Below, piece after piece: positions 26,641 to 31,289 of a stretch of 39,948 nt of DNA. Below the pieces are notes generated by a model. That model saw only the letters and a program-made list of their open reading frames with translations, was not told the origin of the DNA and made no database searches. This DNA comes from a virus. The translations under genes and the position numbers were made by a program. Each line of letters begins with the position of its first letter. The first letter of the stretch is position 1. The stretch lies in IMG/VR virus record IMGVR_UViG_3300048912_000061, positions 1 through 39,948 of that record; one strand, written 5' to 3'.

Positions 26641-27525
26641 TCAGGCGAGGCGCAGGCTGTACCGCTGCGGCACCTGCCCGGCCTTCTCGAGGTACTGGTT
26701 GCTGTCGAGGTCGAACCAGAAGCCGAGCTTCCCTTCGAACTCCCCGTTGCGCTGCTTCACGATGTCCACGACGCAGTTGTGCTCGTCGGTCTTCGGGTTC
26801 GCGTTCTTCCACACGATCGCGATGTTGTGCGACAGGTCGGTGATGGAGCTGGCGCCCTTGATGTCGAACTTGCCGGGGCACTTGTGTTCGGACTCGCCCT
26901 TGCGAATGTGGTGGACCAAGTGAACGTGCACCTCGTTGGCGTGAGCGAAGACCGTCAGGCCGTTCACGAAGTCCTTCTGCGCGTTGTAGTCGTCCTCGCC
27001 GCGCACGCACTTGGTCAGGCTGTCAACGATGAACTGCGTGATGCCGAACTTCTCGCGGGCGTAGCGCATGACCGCGATCACCTTCTTCCATTCGATGTCG
27101 CCCATGTGGTCGTAGATCCACAGGCGGTTGTCGGTCCAGCGCGCGAACTCGTTGATGCGTTCAGCCGGTGGCATTGCGCCAGCCCAGGCCTGCCGGTTCC
27201 AGCGCTTCATCTGCTGGCGCGCAGGCATCTCGAACGACAGGGACAGCACCCGCTCGGCCTGGTAGCACAGGTCCAGCGCCACCTGCGAGGTGAACATGGA
27301 CTTGCCGTGACCGTTCACGCCAGCCCACAGGGTCAGCTCACCCGGGCGGAACTGCAGGCGCGTGCGCATCTTCTCCCACAGCGGCGCGGGCATCTTCGGC
27401 GTGGCCGCGGTCGGGTAGAACAGCTCAATCACCTCCTTGGTGAACGAGGAGGCAGGCAGCACGCGGTGCTGCTCGGTGTCCTGCATGTAGGCCTCGAAAG
27501 GGATATCGTCGGGGATCAGTTCCAC
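26641..27525 (-). CDS. DnaB-like replicative helicase (RecA-fold C-terminal domain only)
   Basis: Walker A is LWAGVNGHGKSMF and Walker B is QFIVDSLTK. The HLVHHIRKG and IVWKN...VKQRNGEFEG motifs are typical of DnaB C-terminal domains. The start is GTG 27525 or ATG 27486 (GAGG upstream). Confidence 0.8.
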   Translation of the reverse strand: MELIPDDIPFEAYMQDTEQHRVLPASSFTKEVIELFYPTAATPKMPAPLWEKMRTRLQFRPGELTLWAGVNGHGKSMFTSQVALDLCYQAERVLSLSFEMPARQQMKRWNRQAWAGAMPPAERINEFARWTDNRLWIYDHMGDIEWKKVIAVMRYAREKFGITQFIVDSLTKCVRGEDDYNAQKDFVNGLTVFAHANEVHVHLVHHIRKGESEHKCPGKFDIKGASSITDLSHNIAIVWKNANPKTDEHNCVVDIVKQRNGEFEGKLGFWFDLDSNQYLEKAGQVPQRYSLRLA

Positions 27526-27944
27526 GTGGTGCTCCGGTTGTCGCGGGCCAGAAACCCAGCCGCGAAGTGTTCGTTTTGGAAGTCGAGCCAGGCCAGGAAG
27601 TCCAGCTCGTATTGCCACTGCGCCGGCGGCAACAGCACGTCGTCGGCAGTCGGGATCAGGTAGACCTTGGCGCCCCAGTTGCCGACGCGATGCCAGACGC
27701 ACAGGTAGTCCGGCCGGTGCATGGCAACGTCCTTGAGCAGCAGAGGCCAGTCCACGGAGTCGTCCACGACCAGGGCCACGTCGAGCCCGTGCACCCAGCG
27801 CCAGTCGTAGTCGGTGCCAGCCTTGGCATGCACCACGTGGTTCGGGGTCGGCACTTCGCCGACGAGCGAGACCAGGATCATGCCGCTGGGCTTCATGCCC
27901 TTGAGGCGTGCATCGAGGATGGGTTGGGCACCGGTAGCGATCAC
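27516..27944 (-). CDS. Hypothetical replication-module protein (142 aa)
   Basis: GTG 27944 overlaps the stop of the initiator gene (GTGA). The protein-like sequence ...MKPSGMILVSLVGEVPTPNHVVHAKAGTDYDWRWVHGLDVALVVDD... lies between the initiator and the helicase, in the loader position. That role is inferred only. Confidence 0.55.
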   Translation of the reverse strand: MIATGAQPILDARLKGMKPSGMILVSLVGEVPTPNHVVHAKAGTDYDWRWVHGLDVALVVDDSVDWPLLLKDVAMHRPDYLCVWHRVGNWGAKVYLIPTADDVLLPPAQWQYELDFLAWLDFQNEHFAAGFLARDNRSTTWN

Positions 27945-28666
27945 AGGATTTGCTCCTTGGGGCTGGCGGGTTTCGCGTTGGATCGCAGCTCGGCGGCTTG
28001 CAGCAGCTGGCGTCGCAGGATGCCGATCACGTAGTCGGCAGAGATGGCCTCGTTGGGCTTCGAGGCTTTCGCCTTGTCGCAGGCAGCGGAAACCTCCTCG
28101 GGCGTCACCCCAGCCTCGACCAGAGCTCGCATGGCCATGGTGCCGGGGTTGGACGCGATGCCCTTCCTGCGCATGGCGATGCTGAGAGCACCGACGGCCG
28201 ACAGGTTGCGTTCGTCCGTCCAGTCCAGCTGTTCTGGGGGTAGGGGGGTATGGTGTTTGGTGTCTGGTGTCTGGTGAGCATTGCCTTCGGAATGCGTTCG
28301 CATTGCGTCCGGTGATGCGTTCGCATTGCCAACGGATTGCGACGGAGCTTTGCTCCAGCGTGCCTCCGCACTGCGTTTGGCTTTCGCTTGCTTGTCCTGA
28401 TACCGCGCCACTTCGGCATCGCACCGTGCGTTGTGCCAGCCGTCGCCCTGCAGCTCGAAGAACTCGGCCAGGATGGTTTCGACAGCCTCCCGTTCATCCT
28501 TGGTGCGCGCGCCGATCAGCCGCTGGACCGCCTTGATGTCGGCCGGCAGCGGCTTCTCCTGGGCGTAGTACTTGCGGATCATGCGCGAGTACACGCCGTC
28601 CTCCAGGCACGACAGGTGCGCTGTGGCCTCGGCGTAGTCCCCGATGTGGTGCTCGTAGTAGTTCAT
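27941..28666 (-). CDS. Replication initiator-type protein, DUF1376 (YdaU) family
   Basis: MNYYEHHIGDYAEATAHLSCLEDGVYSRMIRKYY is the DUF1376 signature. ATG 28666 overlaps the methyltransferase stop (ATGA). The central linker carries DNA repeats (next feature). Confidence 0.8.
   Translation of the reverse strand: MNYYEHHIGDYAEATAHLSCLEDGVYSRMIRKYYAQEKPLPADIKAVQRLIGARTKDEREAVETILAEFFELQGDGWHNARCDAEVARYQDKQAKAKRSAEARWSKAPSQSVGNANASPDAMRTHSEGNAHQTPDTKHHTPLPPEQLDWTDERNLSAVGALSIAMRRKGIASNPGTMAMRALVEAGVTPEEVSAACDKAKASKPNEAISADYVIGILRRQLLQAAELRSNAKPASPKEQIL
28251..28340. repeat. Iteron-like repeats inside the initiator gene (candidate origin)
   Basis: Four tandem 7-mers TGGTGTY lie at 28251-28278. 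The 15-mer ATGCGTTCGCATTGC occurs at 28292-28306 and again at 28315-28329, each containing the palindrome ATGCG-TT-CGCAT. GCATTGC-like cores recur about every 22-23 nt (28278, 28300, 28323, and a variant at 28334). Confidence 0.5.
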
Positions 28667-29562
28667 GCCGCGGCTCCCATCACGGCTTCGATGAAGACCC
28701 GCGCCGCTTCGGCGTTGATCGCGTTGCCATAGGCGCGCAGGCGTCCCACTCGGGCGGGAGCCCCATGAGCCAGCGGGAATGTGCCGGGTTGTACTGGCCG
28801 CCAATAACCATCGCGGCATCCGAGCCAGTCAGCAGAACTCCAGTAGCCGTTAGTCGGGCCGGGCCGCAGATCGCAGCCGCCTGCGCTAAGTCCTGCGGGG
28901 TTCCCTTCCGCTGGATTTCGCGGAGTGACCCCTCCAGCGTCCGCACGTTCTTCTCGACGTCCGCTGCGAGCGGTGTCGGCCAGCCGGCCAGTGGCGCTAC
29001 TCTCGGCAGATCGCGCGGATTCGATCCGTCGCCGGCGCTGGTGCGGTGATCGCGTGCCAGTGGTGTGGGCCACCCAGTAAGCGCGCTCTCTTGGGTGCGG
29101 CGCACCGACGCCCGCAGCCGGGAACGGGACCGCCCCGAAGGCGTAATCCAGGGCTTCCAGGTCAGTGTGTACAAGGTCGATCCAAGGGCCTGCGTTGCTG
29201 CTCGCAACCTGCTCTCCAAGGACTGCTGCAGGGCGGCACTCGCTGATGAGGTGGTGGAAGGCTGGCCACAGGTGCCGCTCGTCAGCAAACCCAGCGCCTT
29301 GGCCTGCCGCGCTGAAAGGTTGGCACGGACAGGAACCGGTCCAAACAGGTCGATCATCGCCCCATCCGGCACGCCGAAGAGCATGCGACCAGACGCCGAT
29401 GCCGGCGAAGAAGTGGCACTGCTTGAAGCCGCGCAAATCGCTTGGGTGGACATCCTCTATGCTCCGGGTATCGACCACGCCGTCTGCGATGTGGCCGGCC
29501 GAGATCAACTCCTGCAGCCATTCGGCGCAATAGGTGTCGATCTCGTTGTAGTAGACGGTCAT
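28663..29562 (-). CDS. DNA (cytosine-5) methyltransferase, frame A (299 aa)
   Basis: MTVYYNEIDTYCAEWL...QCHFFAGIGVWS...TGSCPCQPFSAAG (motif IV PCQ), LGEQV (motif VI-like), GAPHPRERAYWVA (motif VIII-like) and C-terminal RLRAYGNAINAEAARVFI (motif X-like). ATG 29562 overlaps the upstream stop (ATGA). The central 70 codons are Arg/Gly/Ala junk-like. Confidence 0.8.
   Translation of the reverse strand: MTVYYNEIDTYCAEWLQELISAGHIADGVVDTRSIEDVHPSDLRGFKQCHFFAGIGVWSHALRRAGWGDDRPVWTGSCPCQPFSAAGQGAGFADERHLWPAFHHLISECRPAAVLGEQVASSNAGPWIDLVHTDLEALDYAFGAVPFPAAGVGAPHPRERAYWVAHTTGTRSPHQRRRRIESARSAESSATGRLADTARSGRREERADAGGVTPRNPAEGNPAGLSAGGCDLRPGPTNGYWSSADWLGCRDGYWRPVQPGTFPLAHGAPARVGRLRAYGNAINAEAARVFIEAVMGAAA
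28680..29384 (-). CDS. Second long ORF (frame B, 234 aa from M24; up to 257 aa from ATG 29453) fully inside the methyltransferase gene. It carries WPTP and WLMGxPxxW motifs.
   Basis: MLFGVPDGAMIDLFGP...GSTLYTLTWKPWITPSGRSRSRLRAS...GWPTPLARD...GWPTPLAAD...NPAHSRWLMGLPPEW. These resemble target-recognition and motif-IX elements of C5-MTases. GC3 in frame B exceeds frame A over much of 29384-28745 by hand counts. Confidence 0.45.
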   Translation of the reverse strand: MLFGVPDGAMIDLFGPVPVRANLSARQAKALGLLTSGTCGQPSTTSSASAALQQSLESRLRAATQALGSTLYTLTWKPWITPSGRSRSRLRASVRRTQESALTGWPTPLARDHRTSAGDGSNPRDLPRVAPLAGWPTPLAADVEKNVRTLEGSLREIQRKGTPQDLAQAAAICGPARLTATGVLLTGSDAAMVIGGQYNPAHSRWLMGLPPEWDACAPMATRSTPKRRGSSSKP

Positions 29563-29741
29563 GCCGCGGCCCGCTCCTGCAGGTGCTTGCTCTGCTTCTC
29601 GCACCGATCCCACTCCGCCTGCCAGGTCTCGATAGCTGCGGTGCTGTGCCAGTTGAAGCCGTGGTCGTCGCGGTGGGCGCCGCGGTGGAAGGCTGCGCGC
29701 GCTTTGGCGCGGATCATGTCCTTGGAGACGATCGGGGTCAT
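29559..29741 (-). CDS. Hypothetical protein (60 aa)
   Basis: Internal ATG 29741 (MTPIVSKDMIRAKARAAFHRG...) overlaps the upstream stop (ATGA), and its own stop overlaps the MTase start. Confidence 0.55.
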   Translation of the reverse strand: MTPIVSKDMIRAKARAAFHRGAHRDDHGFNWHSTAAIETWQAEWDRCEKQSKHLQERAAA

Positions 29742-30112
29742 GCTGGGCTCCGCAGTGCAGCCAGCAGGGCCGCGTTCTGTTCCCGCAGCAGGCGGTTCTG
29801 GCGCTGCAGCTCGTTCTCGCGCTGGCGCATGCTGTTCAGGTCGTAGCCGCACTGGTGGGCCATCCAGAGCACCGGGGCATGGTTGCCGCAGGTGTCCATC
29901 AGCTTGACCAGCTTCGGCCAGATCACGCCCTCCTGACCGGACAGCCAGCGCGAGAACTGCGCCTTGTCCACGCCCAGCACCTGCTGCAGCGACTTGTCCA
30001 GCTCGAAGCCAGCCGCCTCAGCGCACAGCTCGATGGCGCCGCCGAGGGTCTTTTTACGGATGACCTCTTCGGGCCGGAGATCGATCGGCAGGCCAATTTG
30101 GCTCTGTTCCAT
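29738..30112 (-). CDS. CII-like early regulator (CP76/CII family pattern), 124 aa
   Basis: ...LGVDKAQFSRWLSGQEGVIWPKLVKLMDTCGNHAPVLWMAHQCGY fits the phage regulatory protein CII (CP76) pattern from memory, with a C-terminal coiled coil. ATG 30112 has GAGGA 7 nt upstream. It is the second gene after cro. Confidence 0.5.
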   Translation of the reverse strand: MEQSQIGLPIDLRPEEVIRKKTLGGAIELCAEAAGFELDKSLQQVLGVDKAQFSRWLSGQEGVIWPKLVKLMDTCGNHAPVLWMAHQCGYDLNSMRQRENELQRQNRLLREQNAALLAALRSPA

Positions 30113-30240: not shown

Positions 30241-30462
30241 TCAGGATGAAATGGCGCTCGGGGCTTGGCCGAACACGTCGGGGTTGAGCTCGTAGACCGT
30301 GACCTGGCCGTCCAGCTTCTCCACCAGATCACGGCAACGCGGTGCAGGCACGAGACCTTTGGCAGCCCACTTCTGGACGGCCTGAGGCTTCAGGCCCAGC
30401 AGATCACCGAGGGCGGTTTGACTGCCAGCGATGCGGATTGCTTTTGCGATACCGGTTTCCAT
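30241..30462 (-). CDS. cro: Cro-like HTH repressor (YdaS/Cro family)
   Basis: METGIAKAIRIAGSQTALGDLLGLKPQAVQKWAAKGLVPAPRCRDLVEKLDGQVTVYELNPDVF. It is divergent from the cI-like gene across the operator region. Confidence 0.8.
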   Translation of the reverse strand: METGIAKAIRIAGSQTALGDLLGLKPQAVQKWAAKGLVPAPRCRDLVEKLDGQVTVYELNPDVFGQAPSAISS

Positions 30463-30569: not shown

Positions 30570-31289
30570 ATGGAAAATATGGCAACCAGGCTGACCCGCC
30601 TGCTCGACATCAAAAATGGGGGCAATCAGTCCGAATTGGCGCGCTTCTGCGGGGTCACGCCGCAGGCCGTGCAGAAATGGATTGCCGGCCAGACCGAGCC
30701 GCGCGGCGCAAACTTAGAGCGCGCCGCCGAGTTCCTCGGGGTCTCGCAGAGTGAGTTGAAATTCGGTACTGCTGTTGCGCCGAGCCAACGGGTTGAGGCC
30801 GGGCCGTTCTTCCTGGCTGAGCCGACAGACTACGCCTACGGGATGAGCGTTGCCGAAGGCGAGGGCAACAGCATCCAGATTCGCAAGGTGAAGCTGCGGC
30901 TGCGCGCCGGCTACCCGGGCTTCCAGACCGAGCCGGATATGGCCGGCGCCGGCGAGGTGTCCGTGCCGCGCGAACTGATCGCGGCCCTGCGCCTGGACCC
31001 GGCGAACCTGCTGGCCATGGCGGTGCGCGGCGACAGCATGGAGCCGATGATGTTCGAGGACGACGTGGTGATCATCGACAAGTCGGATACCAAGCCGATC
31101 AGCCGCGAGCTGTACGCGGTCAACTTCGACGGTGAGCCGCTTATCAAGCAGCTGCTGTACCGCGGCGGCCAGTGGTACCTCCACTCGCTGAATGGAGAAT
31201 ACGAGGACACCAACGTGCGCAGCGGGCAGACCAGCATCGTGGGCCGTGTGGTCATCCAGCCAACGCGCGTGCTGACCGGCCGCCTGTAG
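30570..31289 (+). CDS. cI: cI-type repressor: XRE HTH plus S24 (LexA-like) autopeptidase domain
   Basis: The HTH is NQSELARFCGVTPQAVQKWIAGQ. An Ala-Gly site occurs in LRLRAGYPG. The Ser motif is GDSMEP and the Lys lies in PLIKQL. The start is ATG 30570 or 30579. The 76-codon track extension would cover cro and the operators. Confidence 0.9.
   Translation: MENMATRLTRLLDIKNGGNQSELARFCGVTPQAVQKWIAGQTEPRGANLERAAEFLGVSQSELKFGTAVAPSQRVEAGPFFLAEPTDYAYGMSVAEGEGNSIQIRKVKLRLRAGYPGFQTEPDMAGAGEVSVPRELIAALRLDPANLLAMAVRGDSMEPMMFEDDVVIIDKSDTKPISRELYAVNFDGEPLIKQLLYRGGQWYLHSLNGEYEDTNVRSGQTSIVGRVVIQPTRVLTGRL

Follow-up and report, generated by a model that had tools for sequence, protein, structure and literature searches.

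The subject of this study is a putative C5-cytosine DNA methyltransferase locus in a virus sequence of 39,948 nucleotides (IMG/VR record IMGVR_UViG_3300048912_000061, positions 1 to 39,948), the whole of which is hereafter called the window. The locus consists of two same-strand open reading frames (ORFs), here named frame A and frame B, which a preliminary description of the window had placed at 28663..29562 and 28680..29453 with B in the +1 frame of A. Both are confirmed in the ORF list, and the motif coordinates given with them all check against the sequence (Table 1). Since B lies at +1 of A, each B codon is made of positions 2 and 3 of one A codon and position 1 of the next. The 774-nt ORF of B overlaps A over its full length, its end lying 17 nt before the end of A. 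An upstream GTG could lengthen frame A to 29613; its homologues begin at the ATG instead. Each frame is a genuine gene that is conserved and subject to purifying selection.

Table 1. Features of the A/B locus and their positions in the window
Feature	Position	Strand	Description
Frame A coding sequence (CDS)	28663..29562	minus	299 amino acids (aa) from ATG; proposed alpha, catalytic subunit of a C5-cytosine DNA methyltransferase
Frame B CDS	28680..29453	minus	257 aa, +1 relative to A, entirely nested in A; proposed beta subunit
Shine-Dalgarno sequence GGAG for B	29462..29465	minus	lies in A codons R33 (CGG) and S34 (AGC); 8 nt before the B ATG
Start ATG of B	29451..29453	minus	spans A codons D37 (GAT) and V38 (GTC); in-frame TAG two codons upstream
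A residues 51-56, FFAGIG	29395..29412	minus	equivalent of motif I (S-adenosylmethionine-binding); aligned by hhalign to HhaI motif I
A residues 79-81, PCQ	29320..29328	minus	motif IV, catalytic cysteine; aligned to M.HhaI PCQ
B residues 44-128 with A codons 80-165	29070..29324	minus	doubly constrained segment 1: NLSARQAKALGLL ... GSTLYTLTWKPWITPSGRSRSRLRAS ... GW over A motifs IV-VIII
A motifs VI (GEQV) to VIII (APHPRERAYWVA)	29068..29217	minus	aligned to M.HhaI MENV ... QKRERIYMI
B repeat 1, GWPTPLARD	29049..29075	minus	W128, T130 and P131 invariant or nearly so
A residues 166-232, linker	28867..29067	minus	Arg/Gly/Ala/Glu-rich, unconserved; passenger reading of the B repeat region
B repeat 2, GWPTPLAAD	28959..28985	minus	variation in B codon phase
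B residues 197-236, GPARLTATG...GGQYNPAHSRWLMGLPPEW	28746..28865	minus	conserved C-terminal module, also written GPARLTA...GGQLNPAHSRWLMGLPPEW
A residues 235-272, PTNGYWSSADWLGCRDGYWRPVQPGTFPLAHGAPARV	28747..28860	minus	doubly constrained segment 2; overlaps the B C-terminal module
A residues 274-291, RLRAYGNAINAEAARVFI	28690..28743	minus	motif X-like helix; constraint in frame A only

Motifs and domains of the two translations

The separate database searches recommended earlier assign the two translations to different PHROG families. Frame A matches phrog_363 end to end (2.2e-88, aa 1-297) and PF00145 over aa 75-183 only (6.7e-14, 52.5 bits for a cut-off of 22), the latter match stopping at position 180 of the 324 positions of the profile. 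Among sequences of the Protein Data Bank (PDB), M.HhaI matches aa 71-165, which span motifs IV-VIII, and an hhalign comparison of the A profile with M.HhaI aligns motifs I, IV, VI and VIII (E 6.6e-12 for the whole alignment). In this alignment GEQV (29206-29217) pairs with MENV of HhaI and HPRERAYWV pairs with QKRERIYMI of motif VIII; GAPHPRERAYWVA is found in frame A at about 29068-29106 when the sequence is checked. The PCQ tripeptide is invariant among 57 homologues.

The N-terminal part of A is arranged unusually, FFAGIG standing after a motif II/III-like N-terminus (YYNEID ... RSIEDV) and directly before motif IV. YYNEID was aligned to motif II of HhaI (HhaI 36-50) with a pairwise E of 0.0099, and the same region of A also aligns to TIGR00675 from position 24 onward. 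As YYNEID is motif II-like and RSIEDV motif III-like, with FFAGIG following both, the N-terminal motif order of A (residues 1-56, 29395-29562) appears to be permuted to II-III-I-IV, and it looks the same in all A homologues. M.HhaI (PDB 1MHT and others) thus resembles A in its catalytic motifs I, IV, VI and VIII, whereas enzymes of the M.HhaI type are single chains with the order I-II-III-IV and here the small domain would lie off the catalytic chain. To our knowledge, no C5-methyltransferase with the order II-III-I-IV has been described.

The target-recognition domain (TRD) and motif IX, which would be sought between motifs VIII and X, are absent from the A chain, and the sole motif IX-like segment of the locus, NPAHSRWLMGLPPEW, is read in frame B at 28746-28790. 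In a low-confidence AlphaFold2 model of A, strands and helices alternate as expected as far as residue 166, and a helix at 269-298, near the C-terminus, contains the motif X-like RLRAYGNAINAEAA; the linker is unstructured in this model, with a predicted local distance difference test score (pLDDT) of about 30. With the same low-confidence model as query, the top Foldseek matches are all C5-methyltransferases, at low TM-score.

Frame B matches phrog_1008 (7.1e-33, residues 7-247) and phrog_31772 (4.1e-33). It contains no Pfam or NCBIfam domain, and comparison with PDB sequences, whether by single sequence or by profile, returned nothing meaningful. Modelled alone by AlphaFold2, B is mostly disordered and of low confidence, the best parts being a helix at 70-89 and a hairpin at 95-117. 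The stretch GSTLYTLTWK...LRAS is read at 29106-29183, and repeat 1 resembles LLPTPEASDG of gp61 from Gordonia phage Float294, a protein considered further below. DLFGP (29337-29351), which had been listed among the distinctive elements of B, occurs only in some of the related loci and lies inside the part of B that is free of amino-acid constraint.

Codon composition changes along the gene much as had been counted by hand. The third-position GC content (GC3) of frame A is 0.86-0.91 down to 29385, then 0.47-0.68 with two stretches of 0.80 (29221-29280 and 29101-29160), and finally 0.78 after 28745, while that of frame B rises at 29385, from 0.56-0.57 to 0.66-0.84. These computed values essentially reproduce the earlier pattern; the range of 85-90% then quoted for ordinary genes is too high, as three neighbouring genes measure 0.71-0.84.

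Start signals and selection in related loci

To follow both frames we assembled 93 loci, namely the window, 12 GenBank phages and 80 IMG/VR sequences whose A proteins are 52-69% identical to that of the window; stops, codons and entropy were analysed in the 90 complete ones. An A-like and a B-like ORF are present in all 93, B always at +1 of A, at local GC contents of 0.47-0.67, and the set includes phages of Vibrio, E. coli and Salmonella with 47-52% GC. Whether both frames stay open in relatives, a check suggested with the first description, is answered positively, B being free of stops in all 90 loci analysed. Shuffling of synonymous codons that leaves the A protein unchanged predicts about 3.9 stops per locus in the +1 frame over the B span, and the probability of a stop-free +1 frame has a median of 0.003 (0.023, or 2.3%, for the window). 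The +2 frame of the same loci contains 13 stops per locus. Frame A is likewise without stops through its variable middle, whose limits were set from the alignment, in 90 of 90 loci where B-synonymous shuffling predicts 1.58 per locus; for the window alone, the probability of an open A frame in this middle is 0.86. A frame left open by chance through high GC content was considered and rejected, since the members with 47-52% GC behave alike.

The start of B is embedded in a motif of A, R-(S/D)-I-x-D-(V/I), that is common to the 90 loci and around which the window reads GGAGcatagaggATG. Codon choice at this motif departs from that of the rest of the genes. The Asp codon is GAT in 86 of 90 loci (40% elsewhere in the same genes), the Arg codon is AGG or CGG in 72 of 90, with AGG at 48% here and 7% elsewhere in A genes, and the Ser codon is AGY in 74 of 87 (48% elsewhere). 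A frame-B ATG, formed by GAT and a following G, results in 84 of 90 loci, with GGAG located 8 nt upstream of the ATG in 69 of 90. Stops in the +1 frame are found within the 36 codons before the B ATG in 86 of 90 loci and within the 42 codons after it in only 2 of 90, where 0.58 per locus would be expected, though this stretch is free to vary. With stops upstream and hardly any downstream, the open frame begins at the conserved Shine-Dalgarno sequence and ATG, which is a prediction of independent initiation and is not required by frameshifting. Judging from these signals in the sequence, B is probably translated on its own from an internal start.

Nucleotide entropy by codon position, computed over the alignment of the 90 loci, divides the gene into segments that differ in the frame under constraint. 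Over A codons 1-79, A position 3 has 1.1-1.7 bits and positions 1 and 2 have 0.2-0.5, a pattern of constraint in A only that holds even over about the first 43 codons of B; residues 1-43 of B show no amino-acid constraint, whereas residues 44-120 are conserved. Over codons 80-160 the A third positions come down to 0.6-0.95 bits and both frames are constrained. Codons 170-230 vary at all positions and are mostly free, except at repeat 2, where B dominates and its position 3 is the most variable (1.51 bits, with 0.99 at position 1 and 0.78 at position 2). Every position is low over codons 240-260, with the A phase retained and third positions suppressed, so that both frames are constrained and A is dominant. 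B becomes dominant over codons 260-270, which encode NPAHSRWLMGLPP in B (B position 3 at 0.75, position 1 at 0.42 and position 2 at 0.21 bits), before the single-frame pattern of A returns over codons 270-299, with A third-position entropies of 1.16-1.49 bits in the motif X-like region. At the WPTP and NPxxxxWLMGLP motifs, variation tracks the B codon phase.

Amino-acid conservation follows the same partition. The linker of A is 26-143 codons long across loci, with a consensus fraction of 0.16-0.42 and gaps, while A residues 235-272 reach 0.87-0.95. In B, the C-terminal module has a consensus fraction of 0.86-0.92 together with B-phase entropy at A codons 260-270, and each protein has between 0 and 4 xPTP motifs.

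The dip in synonymous rate that had been named as a test of dual coding is found at the conserved four-fold sites of A. The third-position entropy of these sites, 1.5-1.6 bits over codons 1-79 and again over 273-299, falls to 0.55 bit in codons 80-165 (Mann-Whitney p 8e-8) and 0.57 bit in codons 235-272 (Mann-Whitney p 1e-6). Since this dip occurs in A where B is conserved, it indicates purifying selection on B independent of A; combined with the A phase kept ahead of motif X, it indicates selection on A in that segment too. Double constraint can be measured over two stretches, one of about 260 nt and one of about 115 nt. The earlier proposal of dual coding over at least about 320 nt is thereby borne out as to the double constraint itself and amended as to its extent, the overlap being 774 nt with the constraint confined to these two segments.

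A probable two-chain methyltransferase and competing readings

We judge it likely that the locus encodes a two-subunit alpha/beta C5-cytosine methyltransferase of the M.EcoHK31I type from two same-strand overlapping genes. The dual-coded pair, the first of three readings among which the preliminary description made no choice, is supported and can be sharpened to a catalytic alpha with a nested beta. Alpha, from frame A, would form the catalytic large domain out of its II/III-like N-terminus, motifs I, IV, VI and VIII and the motif X-like helix, its two halves being joined by an unconserved and probably disordered linker. Beta would be translated independently from the Shine-Dalgarno sequence and ATG embedded in the R-S-I-E-D-V codons of alpha. 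Its residues 1-43 may serve as a free N-terminal tail and residues 44-120 may dock onto alpha, and the variable xPTPxAxD array together with NPxxxxWLMGLPxxW (motif IX) would form a small DNA-recognition domain. Both chains would assemble into an active enzyme, expressed from the early operon of a temperate phage, that methylates the phage DNA and incidentally that of the host; its role would probably be to protect against restriction. That the chains form a heterodimer, that both are required and that B recognises the target is inferred, as is the biological role.

The nested two-chain layout is not in itself unprecedented, as this kind of arrangement has been known since M.EcoHK31I in 1995, when its alpha and beta chains were reportedly presented by Lee, Kam and Shaw. 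Passages in PMC2836561 and PMC3404938 describe M.EcoHK31I, an enzyme of E. coli HK31 that recognizes YGGCCR, as having motifs I-VIII and X in alpha and motif IX in beta, with beta coded in another frame of the same strand fully within the alpha gene. According to the same passages, internal Met codons are also able to initiate beta and the N-terminal part of beta mediates association with alpha; a passage in PMC2836561 adds that both chains are needed for activity. The likeness to the phage locus, a smaller chain nested in a larger gene, is drawn from this published description and from layout, not from sequence, and the N-terminal association region of M.EcoHK31I beta finds a parallel in the conserved B residues 44-120. 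Of the M.EcoHK31I motif split, I, IV, VI and VIII are seen in A and IX is placed in B by way of Float294 gp61, while the match for X in A is not significant. M.EcoHK31I further differs in being part of a restriction-modification pair, whereas the phage genes occupy an early operon with no adjacent nuclease.

A second comparison is offered by M.AquI (PMC3404938) and by Float294 (MZ322022, 1204-2437), which has two adjacent genes in different frames, each annotated as 'DNA methylase'. These systems are likewise split after motif VIII, and their second chain contains a variable region and motif IX. Float294 gp62 has motifs I-VIII and gp61 carries, in one frame, two LLPTPxASDG repeats, NPKLSEWMMGLPDGHV (motif IX) and ALKILGNGVVPQQ (motif X). 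In both systems, however, the second gene lies downstream (the overlap in Float294 is only 14 nt) and also carries motif X, whereas B is nested in A along all of its 774 nt and the motif X-like segment stays with the first chain, A. The B profile matches motif IX of gp61, VLNPKLSEWMMGLPDGHV, with an E of 1.4e-4, and blastp of gp61 against about 210 B proteins gave many colinear alignments of gp61 12-181 with B 120-310 (best E 4e-5, in this small set). These comparisons show homology between the C-terminal half of B and the second chain of an actinophage methylase that is split in two. The Float294 split may be AquI-like or possibly an unrecognised frameshift site, and two methyltransferase features are annotated at the homologous place in Paenibacillus phage records. 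A looser parallel is the Rz/Rz1 pair of phage lambda, where the smaller gene is likewise fully nested at +1 in the larger and both products enter one functional complex; these are lysis proteins, however, with a far shorter overlap and no homology to A/B.

The first description had noted that the motifs of a canonical enzyme succeed each other in frames A, B and again A. This order is correct. Because Float294 has homologous PTP-repeat, motif IX and motif X segments in one frame, the colinearity most plausibly records the history of the locus, whose ancestor would have been a single-frame gene or an AquI-like split one, and is not a decoding mechanism.

A bolder proposal, towards which we incline less than away from it, is that the DNA-recognition part of the enzyme is encoded only in the alternate frame (the xPTP array and motif IX of B), within the disordered linker of the catalytic chain. 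Repeats inserted, deleted or swapped in frame could then alter the specificity, the catalytic chain putting up with whatever linker results; this chain may itself have the II-III-I-IV order. Two features would possibly be new, the placement of the recognition module in the nested chain and the permutation of the N-terminal motifs. If recognition does reside only in B, few same-strand overlapping gene pairs in double-stranded DNA phages would match this one in length and distribution; annotation would miss it systematically, and it would offer a natural case of interacting chains co-encoded base for base.

Several observations weigh against a two-chain methyltransferase of the kind favoured here. 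In M.EcoHK31I the TRD is assigned to alpha, whereas here the conserved candidate, a repeat module, is in B and the corresponding region of alpha is an unconserved linker. Compared with M.HhaI, B aligns only to motif IX (residues 274-291), with a non-significant E of 0.62; the M.HhaI query was checked against the PDB in this region and agrees with PDB alignments elsewhere. The motif X-like RLRAYGNAINAEAA of A and ALKILGNGVVPQQAA/ALKILGNGVVPQQAAHAL of Float294 gp61 align through RLRAYGNAINA, again without significance (E 0.46). Pfam scores neither motif IX nor motif X in A, in B or in an artificial A-B-A chimera, and PF00145 gains nothing over A alone, and finds no C-terminal match, with this chimera or with two C-terminal alternatives, which makes the chimera comparison uninformative and not a negative result. 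The single-chain AlphaFold2 models are of low confidence (pLDDT 54.8 and 52.4). The 93 loci are related to one another and their counts are not independent observations. Finally, expression, A-B interaction and activity at this locus are themselves predictions from sequence.

Some of these points would also suit a B that is real and separately translated without being a methyltransferase subunit, for instance one that regulates A, acts in anti-restriction or binds DNA. The lack of a Pfam domain or PDB sequence match, the mostly disordered prediction for B alone and the non-significant motif IX similarity to a solved enzyme would all fit such a protein. We nevertheless regard it as unlikely. 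The C-terminal half of B is colinear with part of a split C5-methylase, in whose second subunit the same segments continue in frame into motif X, and B occurs only inside A-type genes, in 93 of 93 loci. In addition, no conserved part of the A chain corresponds to motif IX or to a structured TRD, and a passage on M.EcoHK31I provides the precedent of a nested chain required for activity (PMC2836561).

Production of one enzyme by two programmed frameshifts, from A to B near 29065-29085 and back near 28745, with the separate ORFs as by-products, had been part of the second of the earlier readings. It would yield a chain of canonical build, with motifs I-VIII, a TRD, motif IX and motif X. It would account for conserved motifs that, read first in A, then in B and again in A, are colinear with those of a canonical C5-methyltransferase, and for the passage of dominant codon-phase constraint from A to B to A along the gene; motif X also follows motif IX in the same frame in Float294 gp61. 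We find it very improbable, for B has a conserved Shine-Dalgarno sequence and ATG some 380 nt before the first shift and its frame is kept open from there even though 43 residues are unconstrained. Residues 44-128 of B are selected over motifs IV-VIII of A, for which the shift model has no need. The A phase of codons 240-260, with synonymous sites suppressed over 235-272, implies that this segment is translated in A, though the shift model skips it. The A-to-B junction is not conserved, its nucleotides varying at all three codon positions (about 1.0-1.7 bits), and no X XXY YYZ heptamer was seen at the B-to-A junction on reading the window, no systematic scan across loci having been made. Frame A, moreover, stays open through the middle in 90 of 90 loci.

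The other part of that second reading, indels or sequencing error, and with it a pseudogene or assembly artefact in which two compensating indels leave a second frame open through high GC, can practically be dismissed, for although long spurious ORFs are common in the window and its own shuffle probabilities are 0.023 (open +1) and 0.86 (open A middle), the same two-frame arrangement recurs in 93 of 93 loci from many hosts, with thousands of homologues for each frame, conserved start signals and a separate selection signature for each. The third reading, B as the main product and A as a truncated relic, fails because A is full length, matching PF00145 and, over aa 1-297, phrog_363, and is under ordinary purifying selection at both ends.

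Genomic setting, annotation and unusual relatives

The A/B locus is placed on the minus strand in the early operon of a temperate phage. The operon begins with a Cro-like gene (30241-30462) and continues with two small ORFs, A/B, a primosomal-like gene (27941-28666) and a DnaB-like helicase gene (26641-27567); a CI-like repressor gene (30576-31289, plus strand) is divergently transcribed. The upstream 97-aa and 129-aa ORFs have no PHROG match, and no restriction endonuclease gene was found among the genes neighbouring A/B. The ATG of A overlaps the stop of the upstream 97-aa ORF (29559-29852) in the sequence ATGA (29559-29562), and the TGA of A overlaps the ATG of the downstream primosomal-like gene in the same way (ATGA, 28663-28666). 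Such overlaps on both sides of A suggest translational coupling along the early operon. With 65% GC, the window is rich in long spurious ORFs. Several long ORFs (up to 280 aa) are also open on the opposite strand of the methylase locus, for example at 29065-29907 (plus strand), as is expected by chance at that composition.

Standard annotation pipelines disallow long same-strand overlaps. For this record JGI calls frame A only, as 'DNA (cytosine-5)-methyltransferase 1' (identical protein P0121), and no protein 100% identical to B was retrieved in the homologue search. That search, in a large protein collection, gave 7162 significant homologues of B, of about 260-370 aa, and at least 8000 homologues of A. 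None of the 120 listed B homologues has a Pfam domain; a few are called 'methyltransferase' by NCBI. With tblastn, B-like sequence was found in 220 GenBank phage records and A-like sequence in 366, and nearly all B matches among those listed lie under genes annotated as methyltransferase or methylase, N15 gene 58, epsilon15 and BcepC6B gp33 among them.

Most phage records annotate one frame only. The B frame is unannotated in N15 gene 58, epsilon15, BcepC6B gp33 and Haboob, where A alone is annotated and a B of 295 codons is open within it; PMG1 has B alone annotated, as 'methyltransferase'. Both nested CDS are annotated in phage K1ind2, as 'C-specific methylase' and 'Mte8-like protein'. Both ORFs are already in the databases, through the two PHROG families, some NCBI 'methyltransferase' names and the K1ind annotations. 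No paper in the searchable literature was found to describe the nested pair as general to this very large phage family, and 'Mte8' is mentioned there only in passing, in a phage genome paper.

A layout usually annotated as one gene has left B uncalled both in this contig and in well-known phages, so expressing the annotated ORF alone in order to determine specificity may give an inactive or non-specific enzyme. A nested architecture known from the single enzyme M.EcoHK31I appears in thousands of phage and prophage sequences across Proteobacteria. The pair also constitutes a large natural data set on two proteins that share about 770 nt: master and passenger roles alternate from segment to segment, and in two stretches the constraint falls on both frames simultaneously. 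Naturally heterodimeric methyltransferases have served as scaffolds for targeted methylation (PMC2836561).

A few relatives depart from the common layout. PMG1 (NC_016765) has cgatcgatcgatcg just upstream of the B ATG, where Haboob has cgatcgatcg. The extra CGAT of PMG1 shifts the frame of A after about 40 codons, leaving the YYNEFD... N-terminus in the other frame and B intact. It could mean that alpha has become a pseudogene, that the sequence contains an error or that the tetranucleotide repeat is prone to slippage and acts as a switch. The B frame of Edwardsiella phage eiAU (NC_042029, 844-2268) is without its usual stop and runs for 474 codons, entering a downstream 'DNA methyltransferase' gene (1723-2268) that has the NPPY motif of amino-methyltransferases; a B-Dam fusion product is possible, or simply a lost stop. 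Long A-frame (549 aa) and B-frame (376 aa) ORFs with repeated A and B matches are present in Komagataeibacter phage phiKX1 (443-2090), where only a 202-aa 'hypothetical protein' is annotated; the repetition suggests an internal duplication. In 'Dunaliella viridis virus SI2' both frames survive only as a short remnant at 1049-1526, which carries the annotation of a 134-aa 'cytosine methylase'.

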